From a virus: a stretch of DNA of 64,000 nucleotides. The DNA lies in IMG/VR virus record IMGVR_UViG_3300033273_000658, positions 77,006 through 141,005 of that record. The stretch is one strand, 5' to 3'. This document shows, in pieces, positions 3,304 through 15,902 of this stretch (its first letter is position 1; each line of letters begins with the position of its first letter). The notes under the pieces were generated by a model. The model did not search any database and had not been told where the DNA came from. It saw only the letters and a program-made list of their open reading frames with translations. The translations under genes were made by a program, and so were the position numbers.

Positions 3304-3567
3304 ATGAAAAAATACATAGTTTATGGAAGATCAAGCTGTCCTTATTGTATTAAGGTAGTGAACAAGTTATTGAGAGGTGGTAAGACATTTTATGTTGAAC
3401 TGCACGATAGCACACCAGAAAAATTAGAAGAGGTTAAGAAAAGATTTAACCACCCAACAATTCCTGTTGTTACTTTTATAGACGACACAGAGATTCTTAT
3501 CGGTGGTTGCGACGATACGATTGACCATCTTAAAAAAGAGAAGTCGAATGACGCTAGTGAGACATAA
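3304..3567 (+). CDS. Glutaredoxin
   Basis: CPYC active site, TIP, IGGCDD. Confidence 0.92.
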   Translation: MKKYIVYGRSSCPYCIKVVNKLLRGGKTFYVELHDSTPEKLEEVKKRFNHPTIPVVTFIDDTEILIGGCDDTIDHLKKEKSNDASET

Positions 3568-3760
3568 GCAACAAAAGTTCTTTGAGATTCTAGGTTTTGG
3601 AATTGTATTAGAAGACCACGGATACAAAGTCTTAGTAAGGTGGATTAATCCAAAGTCTCATAAACATACTCAACACATAATGACAAAGAACGCACTACTC
3701 TTTCTTGACCCAAACGAGAAAGATTGTATTAAAGAACCGGAGATAATATGGAAAAATTAG
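3548..3760 (+). CDS. Hypothetical protein, paralog of 9258-9446
   Basis: LVRHKQQKFFEILGFGIVLED vs LARHRDKEVFNKIGFGIVTED. Confidence 0.6.
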   Translation: MTLVRHKQQKFFEILGFGIVLEDHGYKVLVRWINPKSHKHTQHIMTKNALLFLDPNEKDCIKEPEIIWKN

Positions 3761-4113: not shown

Positions 4114-4130
4114 TTAGTCTCCGTTTGCTC

Positions 4131-4169
4131 ACCCTTCTCTCTATTTACTGTAGGGGGGAGGGTTTTTTT
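4131..4169 (+). terminator. 13-bp hairpin plus T6 that also hides the next RBS and overlaps the CTATTTA motif
   Basis: ACCCTTCTCTCTA / TAGGGGGGAGGGT pair fully (with G-U), then TTTTTT and ATG. Confidence 0.65.
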
Positions 4170-4877
4170 ATGTTATTGAGTTTAATTTTGGCTTGTACTT
4201 TAGGGTACAATTATGACAATGAAGGGGTGTCGTTATCGTTTGAACAGACAGCAGCAACTCATTATTTTTATTATGATAAGGCAGTAGAATCTTCCGTTAG
4301 AATTTTATCTTATTCCGGAGAAGAAGAGACTGGACATGCATCTGGCAACTACTTTAAATTGGGACAACACAGATTTATTATTACAGCAGCTCATGTTGTC
4401 ACGGATGGAGACGATCTTTATGTTGAAGACTACAAAGATAAAGTGGAACTTGAGATTGTTGGTATTGATGTAGGAAACGATATTGCATTTGCTATACCAA
4501 AAAAGAATTTAAAAAGCGCAAAGCCCGTAAACTATAGAACAAATAAAAAACTAAACATTATAGGAGATACGATGGTATACGCAGGGTACCCTGCTGACTT
4601 AAATAAATCTGTATTTCATGGAACAGTTTCTACAGAAGCTAGATATTCTTTTATAATGCAATCTTTTGCTTTACCAGGAGCTTCTGGTTCTGTTGTTTTT
4701 GATAACAAAGGTTTGGCTGTTGGAGTGCTAAGTGCAATCAAGGTGGGGTACTCCGGAATCAGCCCATGGCCTCAGCTACATGGTTCCCTTGTTTATGTTA
4801 ATCGATTGAATTTTTATGACAAATACATGCTAGAGGAGTTGTTGGTGAAGTGGAAAAAATTAAAGTCGGAACTCTGA
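4170..4877 (+). CDS. Trypsin-like serine protease with short signal/lipobox-like N-terminus
   Basis: ITAAHVV (His), NDIA (Asp), PGASGS (Ser); N-terminus MLLSLILAC. Confidence 0.88.
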   Translation: MLLSLILACTLGYNYDNEGVSLSFEQTAATHYFYYDKAVESSVRILSYSGEEETGHASGNYFKLGQHRFIITAAHVVTDGDDLYVEDYKDKVELEIVGIDVGNDIAFAIPKKNLKSAKPVNYRTNKKLNIIGDTMVYAGYPADLNKSVFHGTVSTEARYSFIMQSFALPGASGSVVFDNKGLAVGVLSAIKVGYSGISPWPQLHGSLVYVNRLNFYDKYMLEELLVKWKKLKSEL

Positions 4878-5062
4878 TAGAAGACATGGGAAAGATGGGA
4901 ATCATTACTAAAGTCATTACTAGTGGAACACTTAAAACAGATAACGAATTGATTAAGTGGAGAAACAATTATGAAATCTTTTATTCTGATGGAACGATAG
5001 CAATACTTGGTGAAGCTACACTTCACAGACTTATAGAAAAGGGAGATGTTAAGATCTTATGA
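4850..5062 (+). CDS. Small KOW/SH3-like protein
   Basis: IKVGTLI...MGIITKV. Confidence 0.55.
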   Translation: MEKIKVGTLIEDMGKMGIITKVITSGTLKTDNELIKWRNNYEIFYSDGTIAILGEATLHRLIEKGDVKIL

Positions 5063-6052: not shown

Positions 6053-6211
6053 ATGAAAGTTGGTGACTTGGTAAAGAATAAATACAACAACAAAGTTGGG
6101 ATAATAATCTCACATAGTGGACGGCCACACCGTATACTTGGTGTAATGTACAGTGTGTGGATAGATGGACTTGATGTGCTATTACACGAATCAGACTTGG
6201 AGGTATTATGA
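6053..6211 (+). CDS. KOW/SH3-like micro-protein (not in ORF track)
   Basis: MKVGDLVKNK...DLEVL, GGAG RBS. Confidence 0.75.
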   Translation: MKVGDLVKNKYNNKVGIIISHSGRPHRILGVMYSVWIDGLDVLLHESDLEVL

Positions 6212-6363
6212 TAGGTAGACTTGTGCGTTGCAAATATACAAATGAAATAGGAATAGTGTTGCGTAGGGAAATAACACGCAGAGGAAACTTTCGCTACCAT
6301 GTGTTTATTGGTGGCCATACAGAAAGTTTTCTTCCACATTTCTTGGAGGTGATAGATGAATAA
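6208..6363 (+). CDS. KOW/SH3-like micro-protein
   Basis: MIGRLVRC...FLEVIDE; ATGA overlap. Confidence 0.7.
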   Translation: MIGRLVRCKYTNEIGIVLRREITRRGNFRYHVFIGGHTESFLPHFLEVIDE

Positions 6364-6526
6364 AGGTGACTTGGTACGGATAAGACATAACGAACATCAA
6401 GGGCTATTCATCCTCATGGAAAAATGTTCGGCTGGTAGCCAGTTCGTGAGACTATATTCTTTGAAATACAACCGCGTATGTTTTGATATGATACGCTCAT
6501 TAGAGGTGATAAATGCAGAAAGGTGA
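6356..6526 (+). CDS. KOW/SH3-like micro-protein
   Basis: MNKGDLVRI...LEVINAER. Confidence 0.7.
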   Translation: MNKGDLVRIRHNEHQGLFILMEKCSAGSQFVRLYSLKYNRVCFDMIRSLEVINAER

Positions 6527-6662
6527 TTTAGTTAGATGTATATACACTGATGAACTATTGGTCATAACTTCGGAAGAAGTTGACGGCTATTTTGATGTGT
6601 ATGCAGTTGGAAATGGAAACATGTGGCTTATGCCCAAAGAACATTTAGAGGTGATAAAATGA
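6513..6662 (+). CDS. KOW/SH3-like micro-protein
   Basis: MQKGDLVRC...HLEVIK. Confidence 0.7.
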   Translation: MQKGDLVRCIYTDELLVITSEEVDGYFDVYAVGNGNMWLMPKEHLEVIK

Positions 6663-6844
6663 AAGTAGGTGATTTAAGAGTATTTAAGCCTTGTAGTTTC
6701 TATGCAAACAACATGTTTGTTGTCACACAAGTAGACGATATGGACTGCTCAATAACAATAAGAATAATAAAGACAGGAGAAGTGGAATGTTGGGATCGAA
6801 TAATACTTCTTCACGACAGTAAATCCGTATCGGTCAAAAAATAA
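6659..6844 (+). CDS. KOW/SH3-like micro-protein
   Basis: MKVGDLRVF; GAGGTG RBS. Confidence 0.7.
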   Translation: MKVGDLRVFKPCSFYANNMFVVTQVDDMDCSITIRIIKTGEVECWDRIILLHDSKSVSVKK

Positions 6845-6853
6845 ACTTTTTTC

Positions 6854-6882
6854 TTGACAAAATAATTGCAACACATTAAGCT
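6854..6882 (+). promoter_or_regulatory. Early promoter (repeated family)
   Basis: TTTTTTCTTGACA-N17-TAAGCT. Confidence 0.8.
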
Positions 6883-6911
6883 ATAATTGCCAATCAAAAC
6901 ATGGAGACAAA

Positions 6912-7655
6912 ATGAACATAGAAAAAACAAAAGAGATTCTGCTAGGAAGAATAAACAAACTGACAGAAGAAGAAAGAGAGTGGATGTACGAAAACAATAG
7001 AGCATGGTATAACAAATACCTTTTTGATAGTCCGTACCAAAAAGAAGAATACTCCAACTTACAATGGGAAGCTATGTGGCTATGGTCATCCTTTGGCCAA
7101 GACTACCTTCGCAATAAGTCTTTGGCAAAGAAATTTCTATCTTCGGAGAAGAAGATGAATCAAGTCATGGATATGATGCAAGACCGCAAGAAGTGGTATA
7201 ATACTCGTGTCGATGAAATAAAGCAGCTACATGCGACTGGTAAGCTCACACAAGAGATTATGGCTTTCTTCATAAGCATGTTTCGCAAAGAAAACTTCAA
7301 TGTCTTTGAGAGCTATGTTAAAGACCCAATCTTTGACACTGGTGCAATTGTGCAGTTTCGCTCCAACATTGGTGTAGACGCAGTTCTTCAAGAACATAAG
7401 TATAGTGGTGGCACACAGTATTACGGAGCGAATCATAGTACAATGCGAGAACTTAAGCAAAAGACCATGATGGTGCTGGGTGAAAGTCCACCGTTGGGCG
7501 GCAAGATTTATGCTAGTGCCTATTCTCATAAAGAGAAACAAGGTGGTTCACGCTTGTATCGTGTTCTTCCTATCGGAGACACAAAAGTGTATATTGTTGT
7601 GGAGAAGTTCCTTAAGAAGTGTAGAACAAAGGCAGTGAAAGATGCAAAGAAGTGA
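6912..7655 (+). CDS. Hypothetical protein
   Basis: 247-aa ORF, GGAG RBS. Confidence 0.8.
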   Translation: MNIEKTKEILLGRINKLTEEEREWMYENNRAWYNKYLFDSPYQKEEYSNLQWEAMWLWSSFGQDYLRNKSLAKKFLSSEKKMNQVMDMMQDRKKWYNTRVDEIKQLHATGKLTQEIMAFFISMFRKENFNVFESYVKDPIFDTGAIVQFRSNIGVDAVLQEHKYSGGTQYYGANHSTMRELKQKTMMVLGESPPLGGKIYASAYSHKEKQGGSRLYRVLPIGDTKVYIVVEKFLKKCRTKAVKDAKK

Positions 7656-7836
7656 TTTCAAGAAAGGCGATCTGTTCAGATACAATAAAGGTATGTCTAT
7701 CCATGATGACGTTCATGGGCTTATAGGCATTGTGCTTGCTCCAATCAATCAGTTTGGACAATACAAAGTGCAAGTAGCGCACAAAACATTGTGGGTTCCT
7801 TTTTGTTCCTTGGAGGTGTTAGATGAAGAAAGGTGA
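7642..7836 (+). CDS. KOW/SH3-like micro-protein
   Basis: FKKGDLFRY...GIVL...SLEVL. Confidence 0.7.
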   Translation: MQRSDFKKGDLFRYNKGMSIHDDVHGLIGIVLAPINQFGQYKVQVAHKTLWVPFCSLEVLDEER

Positions 7837-7987
7837 TGTGGTAATACCAGTCAGTAAAGATTTAGATAAGACACCTATGATCTACATGGGAATAGGTTTG
7901 TGGACTGGGTGGATACGCGTGTATTGTCCAGCAGATGGACAGATAATACAGGTTAGAAAAACATTCGTACAAAAGGTGGAAGTATGA
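7823..7987 (+). CDS. KOW/SH3-like micro-protein
   Basis: MKKGDVVIP. Confidence 0.65.
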   Translation: MKKGDVVIPVSKDLDKTPMIYMGIGLWTGWIRVYCPADGQIIQVRKTFVQKVEV

Positions 7988-8151
7988 AAGTAGGTGATCT
8001 GGTACAGATGAAAGACACACGCTACCACAAAGAGATAGGTGTGGTCATAAAAACTTTTTTCCATGGCGATTGGCGAATAGAGGTTCATTGGGCTGATGGT
8101 CGTGTGTTGTGGGAATCAAAGCTGGACTTAATACCTGTTGAAAAAACTTAG
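7984..8151 (+). CDS. KOW/SH3-like micro-protein
   Basis: MKVGDLVQM...IGVVI...VHWADG. Confidence 0.7.
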   Translation: MKVGDLVQMKDTRYHKEIGVVIKTFFHGDWRIEVHWADGRVLWESKLDLIPVEKT

Positions 8152-8160
8152 AATTTTTTC

Positions 8161-8189
8161 TTGACAAGATTTGCTCAATCAGATAAGGT
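8161..8189 (+). promoter_or_regulatory. Early promoter
   Basis: TTGACA-N17-TAAGGT. Confidence 0.8.
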
Positions 8190-8219
8190 ATAAATATAAC
8201 ATCAAAACATGGAGGCAAC

Positions 8220-8573
8220 ATGGCTTACATCAAACCAAAAATGAATGTGTTCTTCGCCAATGGTGGCAAGGCAATAACGGCAGTCATAGACAAGATTGCA
8301 TTTCGCAAGTACATGACAAAACCATACAAAGATCCAAAGACAGGTGAAACCAAACGTAGACAGAAGTCTATGCCGTTCGCAGTGTGTCGTGTGATTCTAT
8401 CTCTTGATCCATCGGTGAATGTGAATGAGACATTCCTTATCGCTGGTTATCAGCTTGAAAATGTAGTTATCAAGAATGAGAAGATGCTCACATTCAAAAG
8501 CGACTACGTTGCAGAGTATGCAAAAGACTATGGTAACGAATGGGTTAGGAGAATAATCAATGAAGATAGGTGA
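8220..8573 (+). CDS. Hypothetical protein
   Basis: ORF with GGAGG RBS. Confidence 0.8.
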   Translation: MAYIKPKMNVFFANGGKAITAVIDKIAFRKYMTKPYKDPKTGETKRRQKSMPFAVCRVILSLDPSVNVNETFLIAGYQLENVVIKNEKMLTFKSDYVAEYAKDYGNEWVRRIINEDR

Positions 8574-8736
8574 TTTAGTAAAATGTATAGAAACAGACTA
8601 CGGAATAGGTATAATCACAATGAAAAGACCTTTTGGTGGTTTTATAGTGTGTTTTCCAAACTCAAAGTTAAAACATAGCGACAAGTGTATTGGTTTATCA
8701 AGAGGAAACTTGGAGGTGATCAATGAAAAAAGGTAG
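8560..8736 (+). CDS. KOW/SH3-like micro-protein
   Basis: MKIGDLVKC...NLEVINEKR. Confidence 0.7.
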   Translation: MKIGDLVKCIETDYGIGIITMKRPFGGFIVCFPNSKLKHSDKCIGLSRGNLEVINEKR

Positions 8737-8890
8737 TTTAGTGAGAATAAAACATTCAGCAGATATGAAACTCATAGGCACATTCGGTATTGTTTTGGGA
8801 GATTTGCAACATGGTCATATCATGATAAAGCGTTTTGTGGATGGTCGTAGAGATACCTATCATCAATCTAGATTGGAGCTGATAGCATGA
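8723..8890 (+). CDS. KOW/SH3-like micro-protein
   Basis: MKKGSLVRI...FGIVL...RLELIA. Confidence 0.7.
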   Translation: MKKGSLVRIKHSADMKLIGTFGIVLGDLQHGHIMIKRFVDGRRDTYHQSRLELIA

Positions 8891-9072
8891 AGATAGGTGA
8901 TTTAGTTAGGGTAAACAGTGTTTTCTCTTGGGAACATCAAAAATACTTAGGCAAGATAGGTGTATTGAGGCGCAAAGCAGTAGGTACGGATAGTGTTTGG
9001 CTTGTGTACATAGATGGAAAAACATTATTATTAAGAGATGATAGATTAGAGGTGATAAATGAAAGTAGGTGA
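8887..9072 (+). CDS. KOW/SH3-like micro-protein
   Basis: MKIGDLVRV...RLEVINESR. Confidence 0.75.
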   Translation: MKIGDLVRVNSVFSWEHQKYLGKIGVLRRKAVGTDSVWLVYIDGKTLLLRDDRLEVINESR

Positions 9073-9283
9073 TTTAGTAAAGGTGTCCAACAAAGGGTTC
9101 ACAGCGATAGGGTTCATCAAAAATATTATGAAAAGCCAGATGGGTGAATTTTTCATGGTACATTACCTTACCACCAATGGAGTCCCAAACTTTCGTGGAT
9201 ACACCAATGGTGGGCTGTGGTCAAAGAAGTATCTGCAATTATTAAAGGAGGTGGAAGATGAAAAAGATATTAGCAAGACATAG
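9059..9283 (+). CDS. KOW/SH3-like micro-protein
   Basis: MKVGDLVKV; resembles 12452-12646. Confidence 0.75.
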   Translation: MKVGDLVKVSNKGFTAIGFIKNIMKSQMGEFFMVHYLTTNGVPNFRGYTNGGLWSKKYLQLLKEVEDEKDISKT

Positions 9284-9446
9284 AGACAAGGAAGTTTTCA
9301 ATAAGATCGGCTTTGGAATAGTCACTGAGGATCTTGACGAGACAAAGTGCAAAGTGAAATGGCTGAAAAGCCAGTATGAAACTCTACAACTGAAAAATTA
9401 CATCTTTTTGCTTGACGAACAGGCAGAGAACGGCTATATTGAATAG
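9258..9446 (+). CDS. Hypothetical protein, paralog of 3548-3760
   Basis: Shared RH...GFGIV.ED...V.W pattern. Confidence 0.65.
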   Translation: MKKILARHRDKEVFNKIGFGIVTEDLDETKCKVKWLKSQYETLQLKNYIFLLDEQAENGYIE

Positions 9447-9463
9447 ACACAACAGGAGACAAC

Positions 9464-9619
9464 ATGTTAGATACAATAGAGAAATGTTATTATGTGAGCA
9501 GTGATAGACTGCATGAGAGTAAACCAATGACTATGTTTCAAGCTTTACGGTTTGCAGATAGTTTAGAGAGACAAGGACACAAGAACGTGTTCTTTTACAA
9601 GGGGCAGTTAGCGATATGA
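9464..9619 (+). CDS. Small hypothetical protein
   Basis: AGGAG RBS; TTGACG-N17-TATATT promoter at 9412. Confidence 0.6.
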   Translation: MLDTIEKCYYVSSDRLHESKPMTMFQALRFADSLERQGHKNVFFYKGQLAI

Positions 9620-9795
9620 AGATAGGTGACTTGGTAAAACTGGAATACAAAGGCGTAGATCTTGATGAGAAAGATAGATTGAAGATTGGTATTGTGGTCA
9701 ACAATACCATCACAACTTTACAACTGGCCAAGGTTCTTTGGAGTAATGGCGATCAAACATGGTGTTTATGCGAGCAGTTAGAGGTGATAGCATGA
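9616..9795 (+). CDS. KOW/SH3-like micro-protein
   Basis: MKIGDLVKL...QLEVIA. Confidence 0.7.
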   Translation: MKIGDLVKLEYKGVDLDEKDRLKIGIVVNNTITTLQLAKVLWSNGDQTWCLCEQLEVIA

Positions 9796-9971
9796 AAATA
9801 AAAGTAGGAAGTTTAGTACAGATACAAAACTTTGCAAAGTACAGTGGAATGATTGGGATTGTCATATACGTTTGTAGACGAGCAGGTTTTGTCGATAGTT
9901 ACGCAGTAAAGATCCCGAACACCACATACGAGTTAGGTGTGGCGAGAGAACAACTCAAGGCGTTAGCATGA
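9792..9971 (+). CDS. KOW/SH3-like micro-protein
   Basis: MKIKVGSLVQI. Confidence 0.7.
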   Translation: MKIKVGSLVQIQNFAKYSGMIGIVIYVCRRAGFVDSYAVKIPNTTYELGVAREQLKALA

Positions 9972-10123
9972 AAGTAGGTGATTTGGTTAAACACATGGGG
10001 CATGGTCGCATTGGTGTTATTCTTAGAGATCTAGTTCCCAATGCTAGGGTTAAAAGGTATCTTGTTCATTGGGGTGACTATCAGTCATCACAAGTAGTAT
10101 GGGCTTTGGAGGTGATAGCATGA
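9968..10123 (+). CDS. KOW/SH3-like micro-protein
   Basis: MKVGDLVKH...ALEVIA. Confidence 0.7.
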   Translation: MKVGDLVKHMGHGRIGVILRDLVPNARVKRYLVHWGDYQSSQVVWALEVIA

Positions 10124-10299
10124 AGAAAGGTGATTTAGTAACGGAGAAGTGGCGCATGTGGCGAAACATAGGTATCGTCAAGAGAGTAGGCAAAGACGGA
10201 TATACAAAGGTTAAATGGATCTTGAAAGCAGATCCAGTAGCTGACGATCAGTTTACCAGTGTGTTCGTTGTAATAGGAGAGATCAATGAAAGTAGGTGA
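10120..10299 (+). CDS. KOW/SH3-like micro-protein
   Basis: MKKGDLVTE. Confidence 0.7.
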   Translation: MKKGDLVTEKWRMWRNIGIVKRVGKDGYTKVKWILKADPVADDQFTSVFVVIGEINESR

Positions 10300-10441
10300 T
10301 TTGGCAGAATATTATTTACGTCCAAAAAGCTGGGGCATTATTGTAGGGATAGATACCTTTGAGTATGAGATGTTTTGGATGGATGGAAGCCGTGGATGGA
10401 TCTCAAAACGATCAATGGTCAAGAAAAGAGGTGATCAATGA
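10286..10441 (+). CDS. KOW/SH3-like micro-protein (duplicate pair, copy A)
   Basis: MKVGDLAEY...WGIIVGIDTFEYEMFWMDG. Confidence 0.75.
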   Translation: MKVGDLAEYYLRPKSWGIIVGIDTFEYEMFWMDGSRGWISKRSMVKKRGDQ

Positions 10442-10584
10442 AAGTAGGTGATTTAGCAGAACACCACATCAACTCTTGGTGTTGGGGTATTATTGTGGCG
10501 ATGGATACCTTTGAGTATGAGGTGTTTTGGATGGACGGAGAACGCTCTTGGGTAAGAAAAGAAATCATGGTCAAAAAATTATAG
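10438..10584 (+). CDS. KOW/SH3-like micro-protein (duplicate pair, copy B)
   Basis: MKVGDLAEH...WGIIVAMDTFEYEVFWMDG. Confidence 0.75.
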   Translation: MKVGDLAEHHINSWCWGIIVAMDTFEYEVFWMDGERSWVRKEIMVKKL

Positions 10585-10592
10585 CTTTTTTC

Positions 10593-10621
10593 TTGACAAA
10601 ATAATTCCAATCCTATAAGGT
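10593..10621 (+). promoter_or_regulatory. Early promoter
   Basis: TTGACA-N17-TAAGGT. Confidence 0.8.
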
Positions 10622-10650
10622 ATAAACATAACATCAAAACAGGAGACGAC

Positions 10651-11571
10651 ATGAAACTAGGTTACGCATGTATCAACAAAGGACTATCTGAACAGTCCAT
10701 CAAAAACCGTATCACAACCAACCGTACATTTCGCAAGGCTACCTTTGAAGAGAAAGGTTTACCTCATGCGTCTGCTATCTTCTTACAGAACAGTAAAGAC
10801 TTGCTTAAGATCCTCCAATGGAACGAGCAACACAACATCAAGTTCTTTCGCTTGTCCTCGCAGATTGTATCGTGGGCTACGGAGTATCAGCTCACTGACT
10901 TGCCAGACTACGATCAGATTGAAGAAGTTCTTTTTGAGTGTGGTCTATTCATCGAAGAGCATGGTATGCGTGTCACATCACATCCCGATCACTTTGTCAA
11001 ACTTGCGTCACCCAATGAGGATGTTGTTCGCAATTCTATTCGTGACTTGGAGATTCATGGTGAGATCTTTGATCTATTGTGCCTACCTCGTACCCACTAT
11101 GCCAAACTGAACATTCATGTTGGCGCGTCCTATGGTGACAAACCCAAGGCTATTGACAACTTTTGTCGTAACGTAGATAGACTATCCGATGCAGTACGCT
11201 CTCGTTTGACCGTAGAGAATGATGATCGTGCCTCCTTGTACTCTACCCTAGACCTCATGGAAGTTTACAAGCGTGTCGGTACTCCCATCGTACATGACCT
11301 ACACCACCATGGGTTCTGCACTGGTGGTCTATCCAACCCCGATGCTCTTACACTTGCAGTGTCTACATGGGGCGATACTACCCCCGTGGTACACTACTCC
11401 CAATCCCGTGCCATAGAACACAATGACACGTCCATCAAGGCACATGCACACTCAGACTCATACTGGACACCAGTGGATACATACGGACATGATGTGGATG
11501 TGATGCTTGAATGCAAGCACAAAGAGCTAGGTTTATTCAAGATGCGAGAACTATTAGGAAAAACTATTTAA
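10651..11571 (+). CDS. uvsE: UV damage endonuclease UvsE/UvdE
   Basis: LGYACIN, FFRLSS, HPDHFVKL, NIHVG, RLTVENDD, DLHHH, VHYS, HSD, DVMLECKHKE. Confidence 0.95.
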   Translation: MKLGYACINKGLSEQSIKNRITTNRTFRKATFEEKGLPHASAIFLQNSKDLLKILQWNEQHNIKFFRLSSQIVSWATEYQLTDLPDYDQIEEVLFECGLFIEEHGMRVTSHPDHFVKLASPNEDVVRNSIRDLEIHGEIFDLLCLPRTHYAKLNIHVGASYGDKPKAIDNFCRNVDRLSDAVRSRLTVENDDRASLYSTLDLMEVYKRVGTPIVHDLHHHGFCTGGLSNPDALTLAVSTWGDTTPVVHYSQSRAIEHNDTSIKAHAHSDSYWTPVDTYGHDVDVMLECKHKELGLFKMRELLGKTI

Positions 11572-11585
11572 CAAAGGAGACAACC

Positions 11586-11834
11586 ATGAAAACAGAAAGA
11601 GAACAAGCAATACAAAACCTTATGAAAATAATGCCTGACCATACTGACAGTGCGTTTATAGTTAAACAAGAGGGTGATGATAGTGGCTCGTACCTATGTG
11701 TGTATGTAGAGCGCACAGAGACAGGTGCAGAGGTATGCAAGACCATCCCAACACCGTTTGAGGGATGGAGAGTGGTGCATGTGTGGTGTCCAGATGGGTT
11801 CATCAAGCACATACTGGAGAGAACGAGAGAATGA
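11586..11834 (+). CDS. Hypothetical protein
   Basis: AGGAG RBS. Confidence 0.7.
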   Translation: MKTEREQAIQNLMKIMPDHTDSAFIVKQEGDDSGSYLCVYVERTETGAEVCKTIPTPFEGWRVVHVWCPDGFIKHILERTRE

Positions 11835-12040
11835 AAATAGGCGATCTTGTTGTGTTATCGGCCAAAGGTGCGAAGTTAAAGCACAACCACAATTATTATC
11901 GTGGCTTTGGAATTATTTTAGAGGTTTACCCAGCGAAAGGATACTATGACTTCGGTATACAGTGGTTTTGCGAGGGTAGATCCACACACAACAAGAGAGT
12001 TTGGTTTAAGAGATACGAGATAAAGAAATTAAAACCTTGA
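11831..12040 (+). CDS. KOW/SH3-like micro-protein
   Basis: MKIGDLVVL...FGIIL. Confidence 0.75.
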   Translation: MKIGDLVVLSAKGAKLKHNHNYYRGFGIILEVYPAKGYYDFGIQWFCEGRSTHNKRVWFKRYEIKKLKP

Positions 12041-12065
12041 TTATGAAAAAACTTCAATTTTTTTC

Positions 12066-12094
12066 TTGACAAAATAATTGTAACCCTATAAGCT
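12066..12094 (+). promoter_or_regulatory. Early promoter
   Basis: TTGACA-N17-TAAGCT. Confidence 0.8.
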
Positions 12095-12124
12095 ATAAAC
12101 ACCACACCGAACAACGGAGAAAAA

Positions 12125-12322
12125 ATGATTGGAAAACTAGTAAAACGAAAAGAAAAAAAACACCACAAGTTTTGGGGAGTAGGTATAGTTTTAGATTACA
12201 GATCCACAGGAAGATTTTACCCCAGTACAGAACTGAAAGTGCATTGGGTTTCCTGTGAAATCGGTTCACAGATTTCTAGCATTGACATTGGGCTTGTGGA
12301 GTTTTTAGATGAAAGCAGGTAG
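12125..12322 (+). CDS. KOW/SH3-like micro-protein
   Basis: MIGKLVKR...VGIVL...KVHW. Confidence 0.7.
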   Translation: MIGKLVKRKEKKHHKFWGVGIVLDYRSTGRFYPSTELKVHWVSCEIGSQISSIDIGLVEFLDESR

Positions 12323-12455
12323 TGTAGTAGAAAATACTTTTGGAGACATTGGTATCGTCATTCGACAGATAGGTGTCGCAGATAGGTGGCTCATTCAATG
12401 GGCTAGTGGAGAAGTTTACGGTATCAATGGATACCAACTAGAGGTGATAGCATGA
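12309..12455 (+). CDS. KOW/SH3-like micro-protein
   Basis: MKAGSVVEN...QLEVIA. Confidence 0.7.
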   Translation: MKAGSVVENTFGDIGIVIRQIGVADRWLIQWASGEVYGINGYQLEVIA

Positions 12456-12646
12456 AGATAGGTGATTTAGTAAAAGTGACACACAAAGGTAATCGTACGA
12501 TTGGATACATCAAAAAGTTTGGACGTTATGGGAAGAGTTATGTTATGGTCGTGTACTTGACTGGCTCTCATGTAGGCAAAGAGCGGTTCTTCTCAGAAAA
12601 AGAAGTCCTACCAATCAATCAACTCATTGGAGAGGAAAGAGCATGA
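12452..12646 (+). CDS. KOW/SH3-like micro-protein
   Basis: MKIGDLVKV. Confidence 0.75.
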   Translation: MKIGDLVKVTHKGNRTIGYIKKFGRYGKSYVMVVYLTGSHVGKERFFSEKEVLPINQLIGEERA

Positions 12647-12822
12647 AGATAGGTGATTTAGTTATAGTAAAAGATGTTTTGGGCTACAACACGTACATGC
12701 AGAACCTTGCCGGTCACATTGGTGTAATTGTCAAGGAAAGGTACAATGAGCATTGGGTGAAAGTCCACATACTAGGAAAAACAAAAAGGATCAGCATATA
12801 TGATTTGAAGGTGATAAAGTGA
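12643..12822 (+). CDS. KOW/SH3-like micro-protein
   Basis: MKIGDLVIV...DLKVIK. Confidence 0.7.
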   Translation: MKIGDLVIVKDVLGYNTYMQNLAGHIGVIVKERYNEHWVKVHILGKTKRISIYDLKVIK

Positions 12823-12995
12823 AGATAGGAACACTATGCGAAGTGGTTGCAATAGCAAGTCATTTTCCATCACAGTTTGGTGATTTAGTGGTCATAACAG
12901 GATACACACATGGTGTATACATCACTGGAACAAACTTGAAAACAGGCAAAACACATCATTACAACCCAACAGAACTCAAAGAGGTGAAACAATGA
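12819..12995 (+). CDS. KOW/SH3-like micro-protein (GTG start)
   Basis: VKIGTLCEV; GTGA overlap. Confidence 0.6.
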   Translation: MKIGTLCEVVAIASHFPSQFGDLVVITGYTHGVYITGTNLKTGKTHHYNPTELKEVKQ

Positions 12996-13291
12996 ACGTA
13001 TACGAAGTTACAAAAACAAGACCATGGGATGGTAGAGAAACAATAAGTATTCACATGACACGAAAAGGTGCTTTGCAAGTGGCTTGCATAGAGGGTTTGG
13101 ATGCACTTTTGGGCTGTTTTCATGAAGATGATGAGGATTTAGCATGGGCAGAAAAGAGTCTTGAAACACTTGAAAACCCAGATCATACGCTCAAAATAAA
13201 AGAACTGGAAACTATGTTCGATAAATGCGAAGAACTTCTTTGGAGCATAGAAATGGAGGTAGAGGTGCATGAATACGCACTCAAACCATAA
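12992..13291 (+). CDS. Hypothetical acidic protein
   Basis: GAGGTG RBS. Confidence 0.75.
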   Translation: MNVYEVTKTRPWDGRETISIHMTRKGALQVACIEGLDALLGCFHEDDEDLAWAEKSLETLENPDHTLKIKELETMFDKCEELLWSIEMEVEVHEYALKP

Positions 13292-13314
13292 AAAAATTAT
13301 TTTCAACTTTTTTC

Positions 13315-13343
13315 TTGACAAAACAATTCCAACCCTATAAGGT
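13315..13343 (+). promoter_or_regulatory. Early promoter
   Basis: TTGACA-N17-TAAGGT. Confidence 0.8.
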
Positions 13344-13374
13344 ATAAAGACCAACCCAAACAAACGGAGACAAC

Positions 13375-14304
13375 ATGAACATTCATGAAAACAAGAACAG
13401 CTCAAACAGAAGTAAAGCAACATGTGGCTACTGCCGAGAAGAGGGGCACAACCAATACCAATGTCCACACGTCAAAGGTGATTGGGAGAACTTCCTATCA
13501 AGACTGGAAATTCCCAAAGACAAAGATGGTAACATCATCAGACGTGGCTATAATTACGCTGTATGGAGTTATAGTGGCAACTTCGATCCTCTCACTATGG
13601 ACATAGCCAATAATGCTCTTGCCTCATGGTTTCGTAACTGCAAGAAAGCATACCTCGTCCAGAAAGAACGTGGGTTCAATCTTGAACACAAAACCAAGCG
13701 CAAAGCAGTAAATAGAACATGTGGCTTTTGTGGTGGCAAAGATCATACAAGGCGCAACTGTACCAAGATGGAACAGTTTCTCAAAGACTGCTACAAAGCC
13801 AATGAGAACTGGCGAATGGCTGCCTACAAAGATCTTGTGTTGGATGGTGGCTTATCTGTTGGGGCTTGTATCAAGGTCTCTTATGAAACAGGCAACTGGA
13901 GTAATAGAGAGACTAAAATGAGCACCGGTATCATCACCAAGATAAATTGGAACACTGTAAATGTGTTCTCCGGTATGAACAAACGTCACAACGATGCTCA
14001 TTCTCCGATAGAGGTTTCTGTACTGGTAGATGGTGAAACAAGACGACTTGATAATCTTGCTGACAAGTTCAACACTGTCGGAGAGAATGGTAGAATACAT
14101 TCCTTTTGGAATGGTGCCCCAGCATGTTCACTGCATACAGTTATCACCAACTCCCCTACTCCCCTACCCCAAGAGTGGATTACTTCCTACAAGGAATCCT
14201 TTGGAACTCTTGTCAAGAAGAGAACTTATGAGCAACTACAAAACGGCTTGAAGTCCGATTGGCGACCTGCTAACCTTGTAGCTCACATTGACGCATGGAA
14301 ATAA
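13375..14304 (+). CDS. Protein with two CCHC zinc knuckles
   Basis: CGYCREEGHNQYQC and CGFCGGKDHTRRNC (Cx2Cx4Hx4C). Confidence 0.85.
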   Translation: MNIHENKNSSNRSKATCGYCREEGHNQYQCPHVKGDWENFLSRLEIPKDKDGNIIRRGYNYAVWSYSGNFDPLTMDIANNALASWFRNCKKAYLVQKERGFNLEHKTKRKAVNRTCGFCGGKDHTRRNCTKMEQFLKDCYKANENWRMAAYKDLVLDGGLSVGACIKVSYETGNWSNRETKMSTGIITKINWNTVNVFSGMNKRHNDAHSPIEVSVLVDGETRRLDNLADKFNTVGENGRIHSFWNGAPACSLHTVITNSPTPLPQEWITSYKESFGTLVKKRTYEQLQNGLKSDWRPANLVAHIDAWK

Positions 14305-14305
14305 C

Positions 14306-14488
14306 ATGCGTTATTCTCCCCTACATACAGGTGATCTCATACACATGTATGGATTGGAGAGCATGATAGGTGTGGTTGTGCGTGAAAGGCGCGAGGGTGT
14401 GTATGATATACACATCTTCCAAGACAATCGCACATTCACATTCCCTAGGGGTATGCTAGAAAAACTTAAAACAACGGAGATAACATGA
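14306..14488 (+). CDS. KOW/SH3-like micro-protein
   Basis: LHTGDLIHM...IGVVV. Confidence 0.6.
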   Translation: MRYSPLHTGDLIHMYGLESMIGVVVRERREGVYDIHIFQDNRTFTFPRGMLEKLKTTEIT

Positions 14489-14739: not shown

Positions 14740-14765
14740 ACGGACAAAAAATTTCAACTTTTTTC

Positions 14766-14794
14766 TTGACAAAATAATTCCAATCCTATAAGCT
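14766..14794 (+). promoter_or_regulatory. Early promoter
   Basis: TTGACA-N17-TAAGCT. Confidence 0.8.
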
Positions 14795-14825
14795 ATAAAC
14801 ACTAACCCAAACAAACGGAGTGACC

Positions 14826-15329
14826 ATGAACGCACTAACCAAAAGACAAAACGAAGTCTACAACGACATAATAGATTTTATCATTCACAATCATAGATCC
14901 CCTAGTTATCGTGAGCTAGGTGATAGACTTGGAATTAAAAGCACAAATGGTGTCTTTGACCATGTAAAGGTTCTTAAACAGAAAGGCCTTTTAAGAAATG
15001 AAACAAAGATAACACCTGTTTCTATGCCTAAAAAACAAACAACTAGTGTTTCTCCGTCATGTATTGGGTTAAACAAGACTCAAAAACTACTATTATTCAC
15101 AAGATTATTGACAAAGATAGGTTCAATGCCAAAAGATGAAATCTTATCTAAGTATGGAATCTGCGAAAGAACTTGGAGACGTTGGAAAAAAGATATGCAT
15201 GGAGCCGGTATTGCTGTTTATACATGGCGATGTAAAAAAACAAAGACCTCCTTGGTGGGTACACCCCATGCCTATGTCCAAGCTATGATTGATGAAATGA
15301 ATGAAAAATTAAACAAAAGGAGTAAATAA
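14826..15329 (+). CDS. LexA-type DNA-binding domain fused to a second HTH-like domain; no S24 peptidase domain
   Basis: LTKRQNEVY..I..F....RSPSYRELGDRLGIKSTNGVFDHVKVLKQKG; C-terminal ILSKYGICERTWRRW. Confidence 0.8.
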   Translation: MNALTKRQNEVYNDIIDFIIHNHRSPSYRELGDRLGIKSTNGVFDHVKVLKQKGLLRNETKITPVSMPKKQTTSVSPSCIGLNKTQKLLLFTRLLTKIGSMPKDEILSKYGICERTWRRWKKDMHGAGIAVYTWRCKKTKTSLVGTPHAYVQAMIDEMNEKLNKRSK

Positions 15330-15459
15330 TGATTCACCACAACGCATTTTATATGTTCCTCATAAATACAGGAATAGTGCTATTGTCAGCTTATTTCTTG
15401 GATAGATGGGCAACCTACACCCAAAGAAAGCCAATTTCCAAAAAAAATAAAAAAAATAC

Positions 15460-15525
15460 TTGACAAAATAATTTCAACCCTATAAGGTATAAACATCTTC
15501 ACAACGAAGAACTTTCAACAACAAC
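15460..15525 (+). promoter_or_regulatory. Early promoter plus hairpin leader (duplicated at 15836-15902)
   Basis: TTGACA-N17-TAAGGT; AAACATCTTCACAACGAAGAACTTTCAACAACAAC. Confidence 0.8.
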
Positions 15526-15816: not shown

Positions 15817-15835
15817 AAAAACTTTAACTTTTTTC

Positions 15836-15902
15836 TTGACAAAGCTTTTCAACCTAATTATTATATAAACATCTTCACAGCGAAGAACTTTCAACAACAA
15901 CA
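15836..15902 (+). promoter_or_regulatory. Early promoter plus hairpin leader
   Basis: TTGACA-N17-TATTAT; leader differs from the 15491 copy at one loop base. Confidence 0.75.

Follow-up and report, generated by a model that had tools for sequence, protein, structure and literature searches.

Overlapping, dual-coding joints link a tandem array of small, putative SH3/KOW-like barrel genes in a marine virus genome

Why should a phage string together two dozen very small genes whose products share both ends and vary in the middle? The question is raised by a stretch of 64,000 nucleotides (nt), here called the window, which spans positions 77006-141005 of the viral record IMGVR_UViG_3300033273_000658 from IMG/VR (141 kb, completeness estimate 78%). 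Between window positions 6053 and 12995, the list of open reading frames (ORFs) and start-by-start reading yielded 24 plus-strand ORFs of 48-74 amino acids (aa), arranged in five runs (6053-6844, 7642-8151, 8560-9446, 9616-10584 and 12125-12995) plus a lone gene at 11831-12040. The explanation that we favour, and consider probable as a whole, combines a dual-coding joint between neighbouring genes, recombination of the genes as cassettes, and an early expressed, diversified set of small binders as their products.

The common pattern of the 24 ORFs starts with MKxGDLV or a near variant and continues with G(I/V)(I/V), an aromatic residue (W in 12 members, Y in 7), a DG turn and, at the end, L-x-V/I. 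Paralogues within the genome are mostly ~30% identical or undetectable in pairwise comparison, and phmmer and jackhmmer searches of the genome from a single seed retrieved the seed alone; pairwise homology of the paralogues was thus not demonstrable, and profiles were required to establish membership. Leave-one-out profiles, run against the complete six-frame ORF set of the 141 kb genome (2312 ORFs), recovered 19 of the 24 members at an expect value (E) <=1e-3 and two more at E 0.002-0.005, while 6659, 7823 and 12819 were marginal (E 0.5-5.7) and the best profile E among shuffled ORFs was 0.4. The same 24 ORFs with constant ends and variable middles had been described in an earlier sequence-only reading of the window, and the profiles agree with that description: most of the family signal resides in the termini, which are encoded by the junctions.

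All 18 member-member junctions in the window are overlaps, 11 of them 4 nt long (ATGA), six 14 nt and a single one 8 nt, and they follow the consensus TT(A/G)GAGGTGATA(gc/a)ATGAA(A/G)(A/G)TAGGTGATTTAGT. This joint of 30-40 nt is dual-coding. Its upstream frame reads L-E-V-I-A-stop or L-E-V-I-N-E-S-R-stop, and its downstream frame contains a Shine-Dalgarno (SD) sequence, a spacer of 5-6 nt and then M-K-V/I-G-D-L-V, so that the downstream SD (GAGGTGAT) writes the last strand, L-E-V-I, of the upstream protein. The upstream stop is always donated by the first five codons of the downstream gene, in the window by the TGA of ATGA or of GGT-GAT, and in relatives also by the TAG of (A/G)TA-GGT, which gives an overlap of 10 nt. 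The members that end in LEV number exactly ten (6053, 6208, 6356, 6513, 7642, 8560, 8887, 9616, 9968 and 12309), in line with the earlier count of at least ten, and they encode it by (T/A)(T/G)GAGGT located 5-6 nt 5' of the next ATG.

Thirty related loci with at least two members each provide 55 more member-member junctions from relatives. Every one of these overlaps (-4 in 21, -14 in 20, -10 in 12, and two others), positive gaps being absent, and 48 of the 55 have an SD core at -16 to -4. Non-family neighbours (ORFs of 117, 51, 107 and 99 aa) are joined to members by similar overlaps. With a stop/start overlap at every member-member junction and the SD within the upstream ORF, the arrangement is that of a coupled operon, and the runs are presumably translated by coupling or re-initiation.

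Could the conserved ends be explained fully by protein structure, as the first and last strands (beta-1 and beta-5) of a small barrel, together with ordinary translational coupling? The joint would then have no role of its own, and insertions and deletions at junctions would be incidental. MKxGDLV and L-x-V-I indeed map to strands 1 and 5 of the structural model described below, and phage and bacterial genes often have ATGA overlaps and an SD located in the preceding gene (PMC12548453). We classed the members of the window and of three close relatives as coupled or terminal, according to whether a gene starts at their end. Among the 65 coupled members 29 carry LEV, as against none of the 18 terminal ones (p=1.7e-4), and E-V of LEV is missing from all 18 terminal members. 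The latter retain an alternating hydrophobic last strand, as the purely structural explanation would have it, and end in VKK, VEKT or KKCP, written by the A-rich left arm of a small hairpin 5' of the next promoter-like cassette. The tail of an individual cassette also changes with its neighbour: the product of 9616 ends in QLEVIA in the window and in HLQMVKKCP in the related contig L013, where it is terminal, and 9968 and L013_9915, identical over 36 middle codons (100% in blastp), have the tails LEVIA and LEVINEDR, respectively. Since LEV occurs only where a gene follows, and since the tail of a cassette changes with its neighbour, E-V of LEV is present for the sake of the SD and serves the ribosome site, as the sequence-only reading had proposed.

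Synonymous codon choice at the other side of the joint also speaks against a purely structural origin of the ends. In codons 2-7, GGT accounts for 79% of Gly codons versus 43% in the genome (p=6e-4), GTA for 69% versus 27% of Val codons (p=4e-6), and TTA for 50% versus 22% of Leu codons (p=0.003). The favoured codons create off-frame stops, namely TGA, TAG and TAG in the +1 frame and TGA in the +2 frame. Of 151 members from relatives, 65% have a stop in each off-frame within their first seven codons, versus 34% of control ORFs, and the expectation from the same peptides back-translated with genome codon usage is 40%. Junction codons are therefore more uniform than the peptide requires. Taken together with the tails of the terminal members and with the crossovers described below, which fall in a 20-nt identical patch, this makes an explanation by barrel strands and ordinary coupling unlikely.

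Comparison of the window with three related loci, L089 (an 89.7 kb contig whose neighbouring genes show 84-90% DNA identity), L013 and L012, revealed a syntenic backbone with cassette-sized interruptions. Five presence/absence differences separate the window from L089, which lacks 6053, 8560 together with 8723, 9968, 12125 and 12643. At these places L089 follows the left flank up to the joint and the right flank from the joint on, the switch lying within ATGAAGATAGGTGATTTAGT or its equivalent; the crossovers fall in a 20-nt identical patch, and the exact point varies within it. Conversely, L089 and L013 carry cassettes that are not in the window, and orthologues of 9616 and 12125 are located in run 1 in L013. 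Public marine metagenome contigs show the joint 9957>10110, in which 9968 is skipped, as well as the joints 12124>12309 (12125 skipped) and 12643>12820 (12643 skipped), the last two in two studies each; several metagenome joints with short sides (22-27 nt) that link distant junctions were ignored as ambiguous repeat matches. The "plug-and-play" character attributed to the array in the sequence-only reading thus takes a concrete form, that is, gain, loss and relocation of whole cassettes among relatives with breakpoints within the junction.

Orthologue pairs between the window and L089 or L013 were used to estimate synonymous and nonsynonymous divergence (dS and dN; pS and pN for the corresponding proportions of differences), with the first seven and last eight codons excluded. 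Close pairs have pS 0.29, pN 0.029 and dN/dS 0.08 (about 600 codons); diverged pairs have dN/dS 0.32 with saturated dS (0.5-2.0). This purifying selection is strong evidence, at the level of sequence comparison, that the members function as proteins, and it suggests that they are translated. The dS of neighbouring orthologue pairs to the same relative ranges from 0.06 to 0.83, a wide spread of the kind expected for a mosaic.

These values bear on the possibility that local tandem duplication produced the array recently and positive selection then drove the middles apart fast, the junctions having not yet diverged and phages having exchanged nothing. One pair, 10286 and 10438, is a clear duplicate, with proteins 66% identical and a 96-nt repeat matching at 76% (repeat family D12), and it is the sole close paralogue pair; the higher dN/dS of the diverged pairs also points in this direction. 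On the other hand, most paralogues are as distant as stated above, dS of the diverged pairs is saturated with dN/dS <1, orthologous cassettes lie in different runs in L013, adjacent cassettes differ widely in dS to one and the same relative, and the orthologue table points to cassettes clustering by type across genomes rather than by genome. We regard recent tandem duplication as quite improbable.

A dedicated diversification machine is suggested by the repeat-spacer look of the locus, with a conserved junction of about 35 nt between variable units, and it could be a diversity-generating retroelement, an integron-like site-specific system or programmed recombination. Neither a reverse transcriptase (PF00078) nor a tyrosine integrase/recombinase (PF00589) was matched in the 141 kb record, which covers 78% of the genome. 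Moreover, the junction is coding and contains an SD, a start and a stop, unlike a folded attC-like site, the divergence of the middles is old as judged from saturated dS, and the crossover point varies within the homology patch, all of which leaves such a machine with hardly any credibility. The phage does possess a gene for a RecA-family recombinase, located outside the window (G000:C1:52149-52967; 126.8 bits to PF00154). The simplest mechanism is homologous recombination acting on the joint of 20-40 nt.

What kind of protein is carried by the cassettes? An AlphaFold2 model of member 8887, built with the 24-member alignment, has a mean predicted local distance difference test score (pLDDT) of 93.6 and consists of five strands, with a short helix placed in loop 1; differences in length within the family mostly affect the loop that connects strands 1 and 2 and those flanking strand 3. 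Foldseek comparison of this model with PDB retrieved Spt5 KOW5, PetP, the NusG C-terminal domain, Mind bomb (Mib) repeats, CPH domains and YorP with template modelling (TM) scores of about 0.7, and VIA-align gave Z-scores of 9.1 for a Mib repeat, 8.8 for DSIF KOW6-7, 8.5 for NusG, PetP and the Hpy99I N-domain, 8.2 for YorP and 8.1 for NdhS. In BFVD the matches included many uncharacterised small phage proteins, and the seven matches at E<=1e-3 have TM 0.74-0.83. At the sequence level, a Pfam scan of ten members at E<=1 returned no family, including KOW (PF00467) and YorP (PF09629); PHROGs yielded weak matches only, to families of unknown function, and a PDB-sequence profile search yielded marginal SH3/PsaE/L21e matches only (best E 0.005). 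Because single families do not stand out among the structural matches, we assign the family, as far as the model goes, to the superfold of SH3-like small barrels; its sequence habits are KOW-like. The KOW/SH3-like barrel of the sequence-only reading is upheld in this sense, for the one member modelled.

The same reading had raised the idea that the members are mimics of the NusG KOW domain that titrate Rho or ribosomal protein S10 (NusE). The 8887 model resembles the KOW domains of NusG, RfaH and Spt5 (Z 6.7-8.8, root-mean-square deviation 1.4-2.2 Å over 48-56 residues), and T4 goF, annotated as overcoming the effects of rho mutants, encodes a protein whose N-terminal fold is predicted to be LSm-like, i.e. 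SH3-like (PMC12152347). However, the KOW model of Pfam is unmatched, Mib repeats, PetP, NdhS, PsaE, YorP and Tudor domains match the structure equally well, and hhalign comparison of the family with T4 GoF, MotB.1 and MotB gave no similarity (probability <1%; 0.1-0.2% for GoF and MotB.1). It is also hard to reconcile 24 highly divergent surfaces with one or two conserved targets. A decoy function of the family is accordingly very doubtful, though individual members might conceivably act in this way.

SH3, KOW, Tudor and LSm barrels bind proteins, peptides or nucleic acids. The net charge of the 24 members (15 basic, 4 acidic) gives no uniform answer, and because about two thirds of them are basic, binding of nucleic acids seems as likely as binding of proteins. 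Close relatives differ in which genes of the array they carry, although purifying selection acts on each gene, a pattern typical of host-takeover and counter-defence genes.

According to the favoured explanation, the five runs would encode one uncatalogued family of stand-alone SH3/KOW-like barrels. The shared joint would act as a short homology patch for ordinary homologous recombination, for which the phage has its RecA-family gene, and cassettes could therefore be inserted, deleted or exchanged without breaking the translation signals of their neighbours. The products would be diversified small binders of host or phage macromolecules, made early and used in host takeover or counter-defence. 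A bolder version, which we put forward tentatively and think less probable than its contrary, is that the joint is a selected, frame-robust adaptor. It would hold the SD, the start and both off-frame stops within barrel-closing strands, and any cassette recombined there would consequently be expressed at once; the lineage would then maintain, at the population level, a recombination-shuffled library of SH3-like binders that tunes host takeover or counter-defence to local hosts.

Several observations weigh against the favoured explanation. Similarity to any characterised protein is not detectable, and the function is inferred throughout. When the first eight and last nine residues were removed, leave-one-out profiles recovered only seven of the 24 middles (E<=0.01). 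Middle-only profiles enriched with orthologues and compared by hhalign connect 15 of the 24 with some other member if a probability of >=80% is required, and about 19 if >=50% suffices, the middles of 6356, 6659, 7823 and 12819 linking to nothing and that of 8723 only weakly. The evidence for a common fold thus consists of one modelled member, for which it is demonstrated, and of middle-only links that support it in about 15-20, and does not extend to the whole set. Orthologues in the codon and stop statistics are not independent of each other, and the off-frame-stop excess is approximate. The concentration of breakpoints at junctions could partly reflect survivorship, only junction-preserving rearrangements being viable. 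Finally, the compared genomes are all metagenome assemblies, in which short repeats can cause chimeras, a concern countered by the recurrence of cassette variants in independent assemblies.

The individual members, all on the plus strand, differ in their tails and in the strength of their profile matches (leave-one-out E in brackets). Run 1 starts with member 1 at 6053-6211 (1.6e-8), the first gene after an upstream leader and ribosome-binding site (RBS), which ends in DLEVL and overlaps the next gene by the 4 nt of ATGA. Member 2 at 6208-6363 (3.6e-8) has the tail FLEVIDE and an 8-nt overlap, and is 92% identical to L089_9093, the tail of which is LEVINESR. It is followed by member 3 at 6356-6526 (4e-4), with the tail LEVINAER, a 14-nt overlap and the unlinked middle mentioned above (middle-only probability 5%), and by member 4 at 6513-6662 (0.005), with HLEVIK and an ATGA overlap; the run ends with member 5 at 6659-6844, which lacks LEV (SVSVKK; marginal, 0.75). 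In run 2, member 6 at 7642-7836 (9e-5) has five extra N-terminal residues and the tail SLEVLDEER, and overlaps the upstream 247-aa gene by 14 nt. Member 7 at 7823-7987 (marginal, 0.53) ends in VQKVEV, where AAGGTGGAAGT acts as the SD, and the terminal member 8 at 7984-8151 (1e-10; LDLIPVEKT) has its stop codon in the hairpin arm of the next promoter cassette.

Run 3 comprises member 9 at 8560-8736 (6e-10; NLEVINEKR, 14-nt overlap) and member 10 at 8723-8890 (3e-8; RLELIA, ATGA overlap), the two that are missing together from L089, the modelled member 11 at 8887-9072 (2e-11; RLEVINESR), and member 12 at 9059-9283 (2.5e-6), which is the longest (74 aa). The middle of member 12 links to that of 12452 at 99.5%, and the SD for the following ORF, 9258, is written within its KEVE. 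This ORF (9258-9446, plus strand), coupled into the array through KEVE/AAGGAGGTGGAAG, belongs to another subfamily: it has a paralogue at 3548-3760, 39% identical, and the two form a separate small family with the common pattern FxxxGFGIVxED...V(K/R)W, for which the AlphaFold2 model is not confident (pLDDT 57).

Run 4 consists of member 13 at 9616-9795 (6e-7; QLEVIA), member 14 at 9792-9971 (5.5e-4; QLKALA), which starts MKIKVGSLV, member 15 at 9968-10123 (1e-7; ALEVIA), member 16 at 10120-10299 (1.6e-4; IGEINESR, 14-nt overlap), and the two close paralogues, members 17 at 10286-10441 (6e-8) and 18 at 10438-10584 (7e-9), of which the latter ends the run with IMVKKL next to a promoter cassette. 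The lone member 19 at 11831-12040 (2.4e-8; YEIKKLKP) is ATGA-coupled to an upstream 107-aa ORF. In run 5, member 20 at 12125-12322 (0.002) starts MIGKLV, member 21 at 12309-12455 (8e-6) ends in QLEVIA, member 22 at 12452-12646 (4e-7) ends in LIGEERA, where GGAGAGGAAAG acts as the SD, and member 23 at 12643-12822 (1.4e-7) ends in DLKVIK. Member 24 at 12819-12995 (marginal, 5.7; ELKEVKQ) has a GTG start and an ATGA overlap with the non-family gene 12992-13291.

Of the outliers named in the sequence-only reading, two stand: 14306-14488 (plus strand) is a distant member outside the array (profile E 3e-5), and 4850-5062 (plus strand) is a probable one (profile E 0.007; hhalign E 9e-5, probability 60%). 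Sequence comparison gives no support to the others, 2739/2745, 5381 and 36897. Another family-profile match (E 2.4e-5) lies far from the array, 12 kb upstream of the window (G000:C1:64996-65277).

The runs are separated by a repeated, promoter-like cassette of about 80 nt, which consists of an A6-loop-T6 hairpin, TTGACA, 17 nt, TAAGGT or TAAGCT, a leader and GGAGA-ATG. Its plus-strand copies in the array are located at 6840-6919 (repeat family D1, TAAGCT version, GGAGA RBS), 8139-8222 (repeat family D3), 10571-10658 (upstream of UvdE) and 12044-12131, and further copies at window positions 13301-13380, 14744-14831, 15446-15525 and 15822-15901. A generic scan for sigma-70 promoters and terminators gave no enrichment over shuffled sequence and did not flag the repeated cassettes. 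The array is part of an accessory region punctuated by these cassettes, and this region is probably expressed early.

Every gene around the array is on the plus strand. Beside and between the runs there are the 247-aa ORF, a 117-aa ORF, a trypsin-like peptidase upstream of the array (4125-4877, Pfam E 4.7e-13), a UvdE UV-damage endonuclease between two runs (10651-11571, Pfam E 3.5e-60) and, directly 3' of a promoter-like cassette, a 169-aa protein with a LexA DNA-binding domain (14820-15329, Pfam E 4e-13), which may be a phage regulator of the array region. The 141 kb record encodes the large terminase, portal, major head and tail-sheath proteins, and in addition a DnaB-like helicase, a 1144-aa DNA polymerase (PHROG 405), ribonucleotide reductase, GroEL, PhoH and an SbcC-like protein. 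This set of structural and replication genes identifies the source, as far as gene content can tell, as an uncultured marine myovirus with a genome of about 180 kb. Searches with the array by megablast and with one member by tblastn found no match among 50,697 cultured or deposited phage records, and GroEL of the record is at most 45% identical to that of any deposited phage, so that there is no close cultured phage. The best GroEL matches among cultured phages come from Flavobacterium and Bacteroides phages, while a canonical SD (GGAGGTGAT) is strong at all array junctions between 6053 and 12995. Bacteroidota make little use of the SD. The host is therefore probably outside this phylum, which is a guess only.

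Within IMG/VR, 257 stretches encode a GroEL relative, and 80 loci were kept (58-98% identical), the array region being located through GroEL and the 247-aa gene as anchors. Complete relatives of 184-191 kb have 7-9 clustered members each and the close relative L089 has at least 18; the family is therefore lineage-wide and expanded in the sub-lineage of the window phage. A profile search of 1.84 billion cluster representatives produced 932 matches at E<=1e-3, mostly of 47-70 aa, and several of those whose sequences were read end in LEVINESR; in a word-indexed search, all 145 matches were unnamed proteins from marine or other metagenomes without a Pfam domain. A few matches, among them P0005, P0010 and P0016, are in-frame fusions of two neighbouring cassettes; in P0005, the 6053 and 6208 orthologues are connected through ...RLGGLMIGRLV. 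Changing a single base of the SD-ATG spacer switches between a 4-nt overlap, a 14-nt overlap and a fusion, and these fusions may be either real variants or sequencing errors. Long multi-domain proteins are rare: between three and six family-profile matches each were found in P0023 (905 aa), P0063 (727 aa), P0067 (640 aa) and P0110 (322 aa); P0023, the only one to match KOW, also matches the Mind-bomb SH3 repeat models of Pfam.

If the favoured explanation is correct, a phage would evolve a large accessory repertoire by swapping minimal domains at a joint that is both a translation signal and a recombination site, a coding counterpart of the intergenic cassettes of T4-type phages considered below. 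The analysis also defines an abundant family of marine-virus proteins without a Pfam entry (932 clusters at 50% identity), and its confident fold should make screens for binders, anti-defence activity or RNA binding tractable. In genome annotation, where most members are too short for the usual ORF length cut-offs and overlap adjacent genes, the joint consensus could serve to call them.

A literature search found no paper describing such arrays, and known systems share only some of their features. An integron cassette array or a diversity-generating retroelement differs by the enzymes already mentioned, PF00589 and PF00078 being without a match in the 78% complete record, and the junctions here are coding overlaps. 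The KOW domains of NusG/Spt5/RfaH and L24 have the same five-strand SH3-like barrel, with G-D-x-V at the start of strand 1 and a glycine-rich strand 2; members of the family, however, lack a Pfam KOW match and are stand-alone barrels of 48-74 aa with no NGN domain or ribosomal context. The nearest analogues that have been characterised are T4 GoF, MotB.1 and Frd.2, which belong to a family with an "LSm-like fold" (Kim et al. 2025, PMC12152347), and T4 MotB, which binds DNA, is predicted to contain a KOW domain and has an interplay with H-NS (PMC7827196). These are small non-essential early proteins predicted to form SH3-like/LSm/KOW barrels; they occur as multiple paralogues in a genome and are suspected of acting on nucleic acids or host factors, but at 119-162 aa they are longer, include additional domains and lack a shared overlapping joint that would chain their genes. 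YorP of the SPbeta prophage of Bacillus subtilis (PF09629, PDB 2HEQ) and the BFVD proteins are likewise stand-alone phage SH3-like proteins of about 60-80 aa, and YorP is also a language-model neighbour of the family; however, the YorP model of Pfam is unmatched here, and an array with such junctions is not known for YorP.

With respect to translation, ATGA coupling (PMC12548453) shows the same 4-nt overlaps with an SD 5-6 nt upstream within the upstream ORF. In the array, in contrast, the whole family uses these signals as one fixed module, which codes for conserved protein strands as well and supplies back-up stops in both alternative frames, which results in overlaps of -4, -10 and -14.

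The closest parallel is provided by the promoter-early stem-loop (PeSL) cassettes, which mediate modular shuffling in the hyperplastic regions of T4-type phages and in which a strong early promoter of sigma-70-like type is combined with a stem-loop terminator (Arbiol et al. 2010, PMC2839356; Comeau et al. 2014, PMC4122927). In both systems a short conserved repeat lies between small non-essential accessory genes, recombination between repeats is the proposed driver, and indels or replacements between close phages end in the repeat, as do the five L089 differences and the joints in public contigs. PeSL-like promoter cassettes are found in the window as well, between runs; these have TTGACA-17 nt-TAAGGT/TAAGCT and, in place of a full stem-loop, an A6/T6 hairpin only, with zero G-C pairs, and are predicted from sequence alone. 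Within runs, the repeat is not a promoter or terminator but a coding overlap that comprises the C-terminal strand, the SD, the start, the donated stop and the N-terminal strand. The cassettes, moreover, appear from sequence and model to represent one fold and one protein family, and the phage is not T4-type, as seen from its DnaB-like helicase, its PHROG 405 polymerase and the absence of a close cultured relative. In its evolutionary behaviour the array is thus a case of PeSL-like modular shuffling, and the new part is that a dual-coding gene overlap of one protein family serves as the recombining repeat in a non-T4-type phage.

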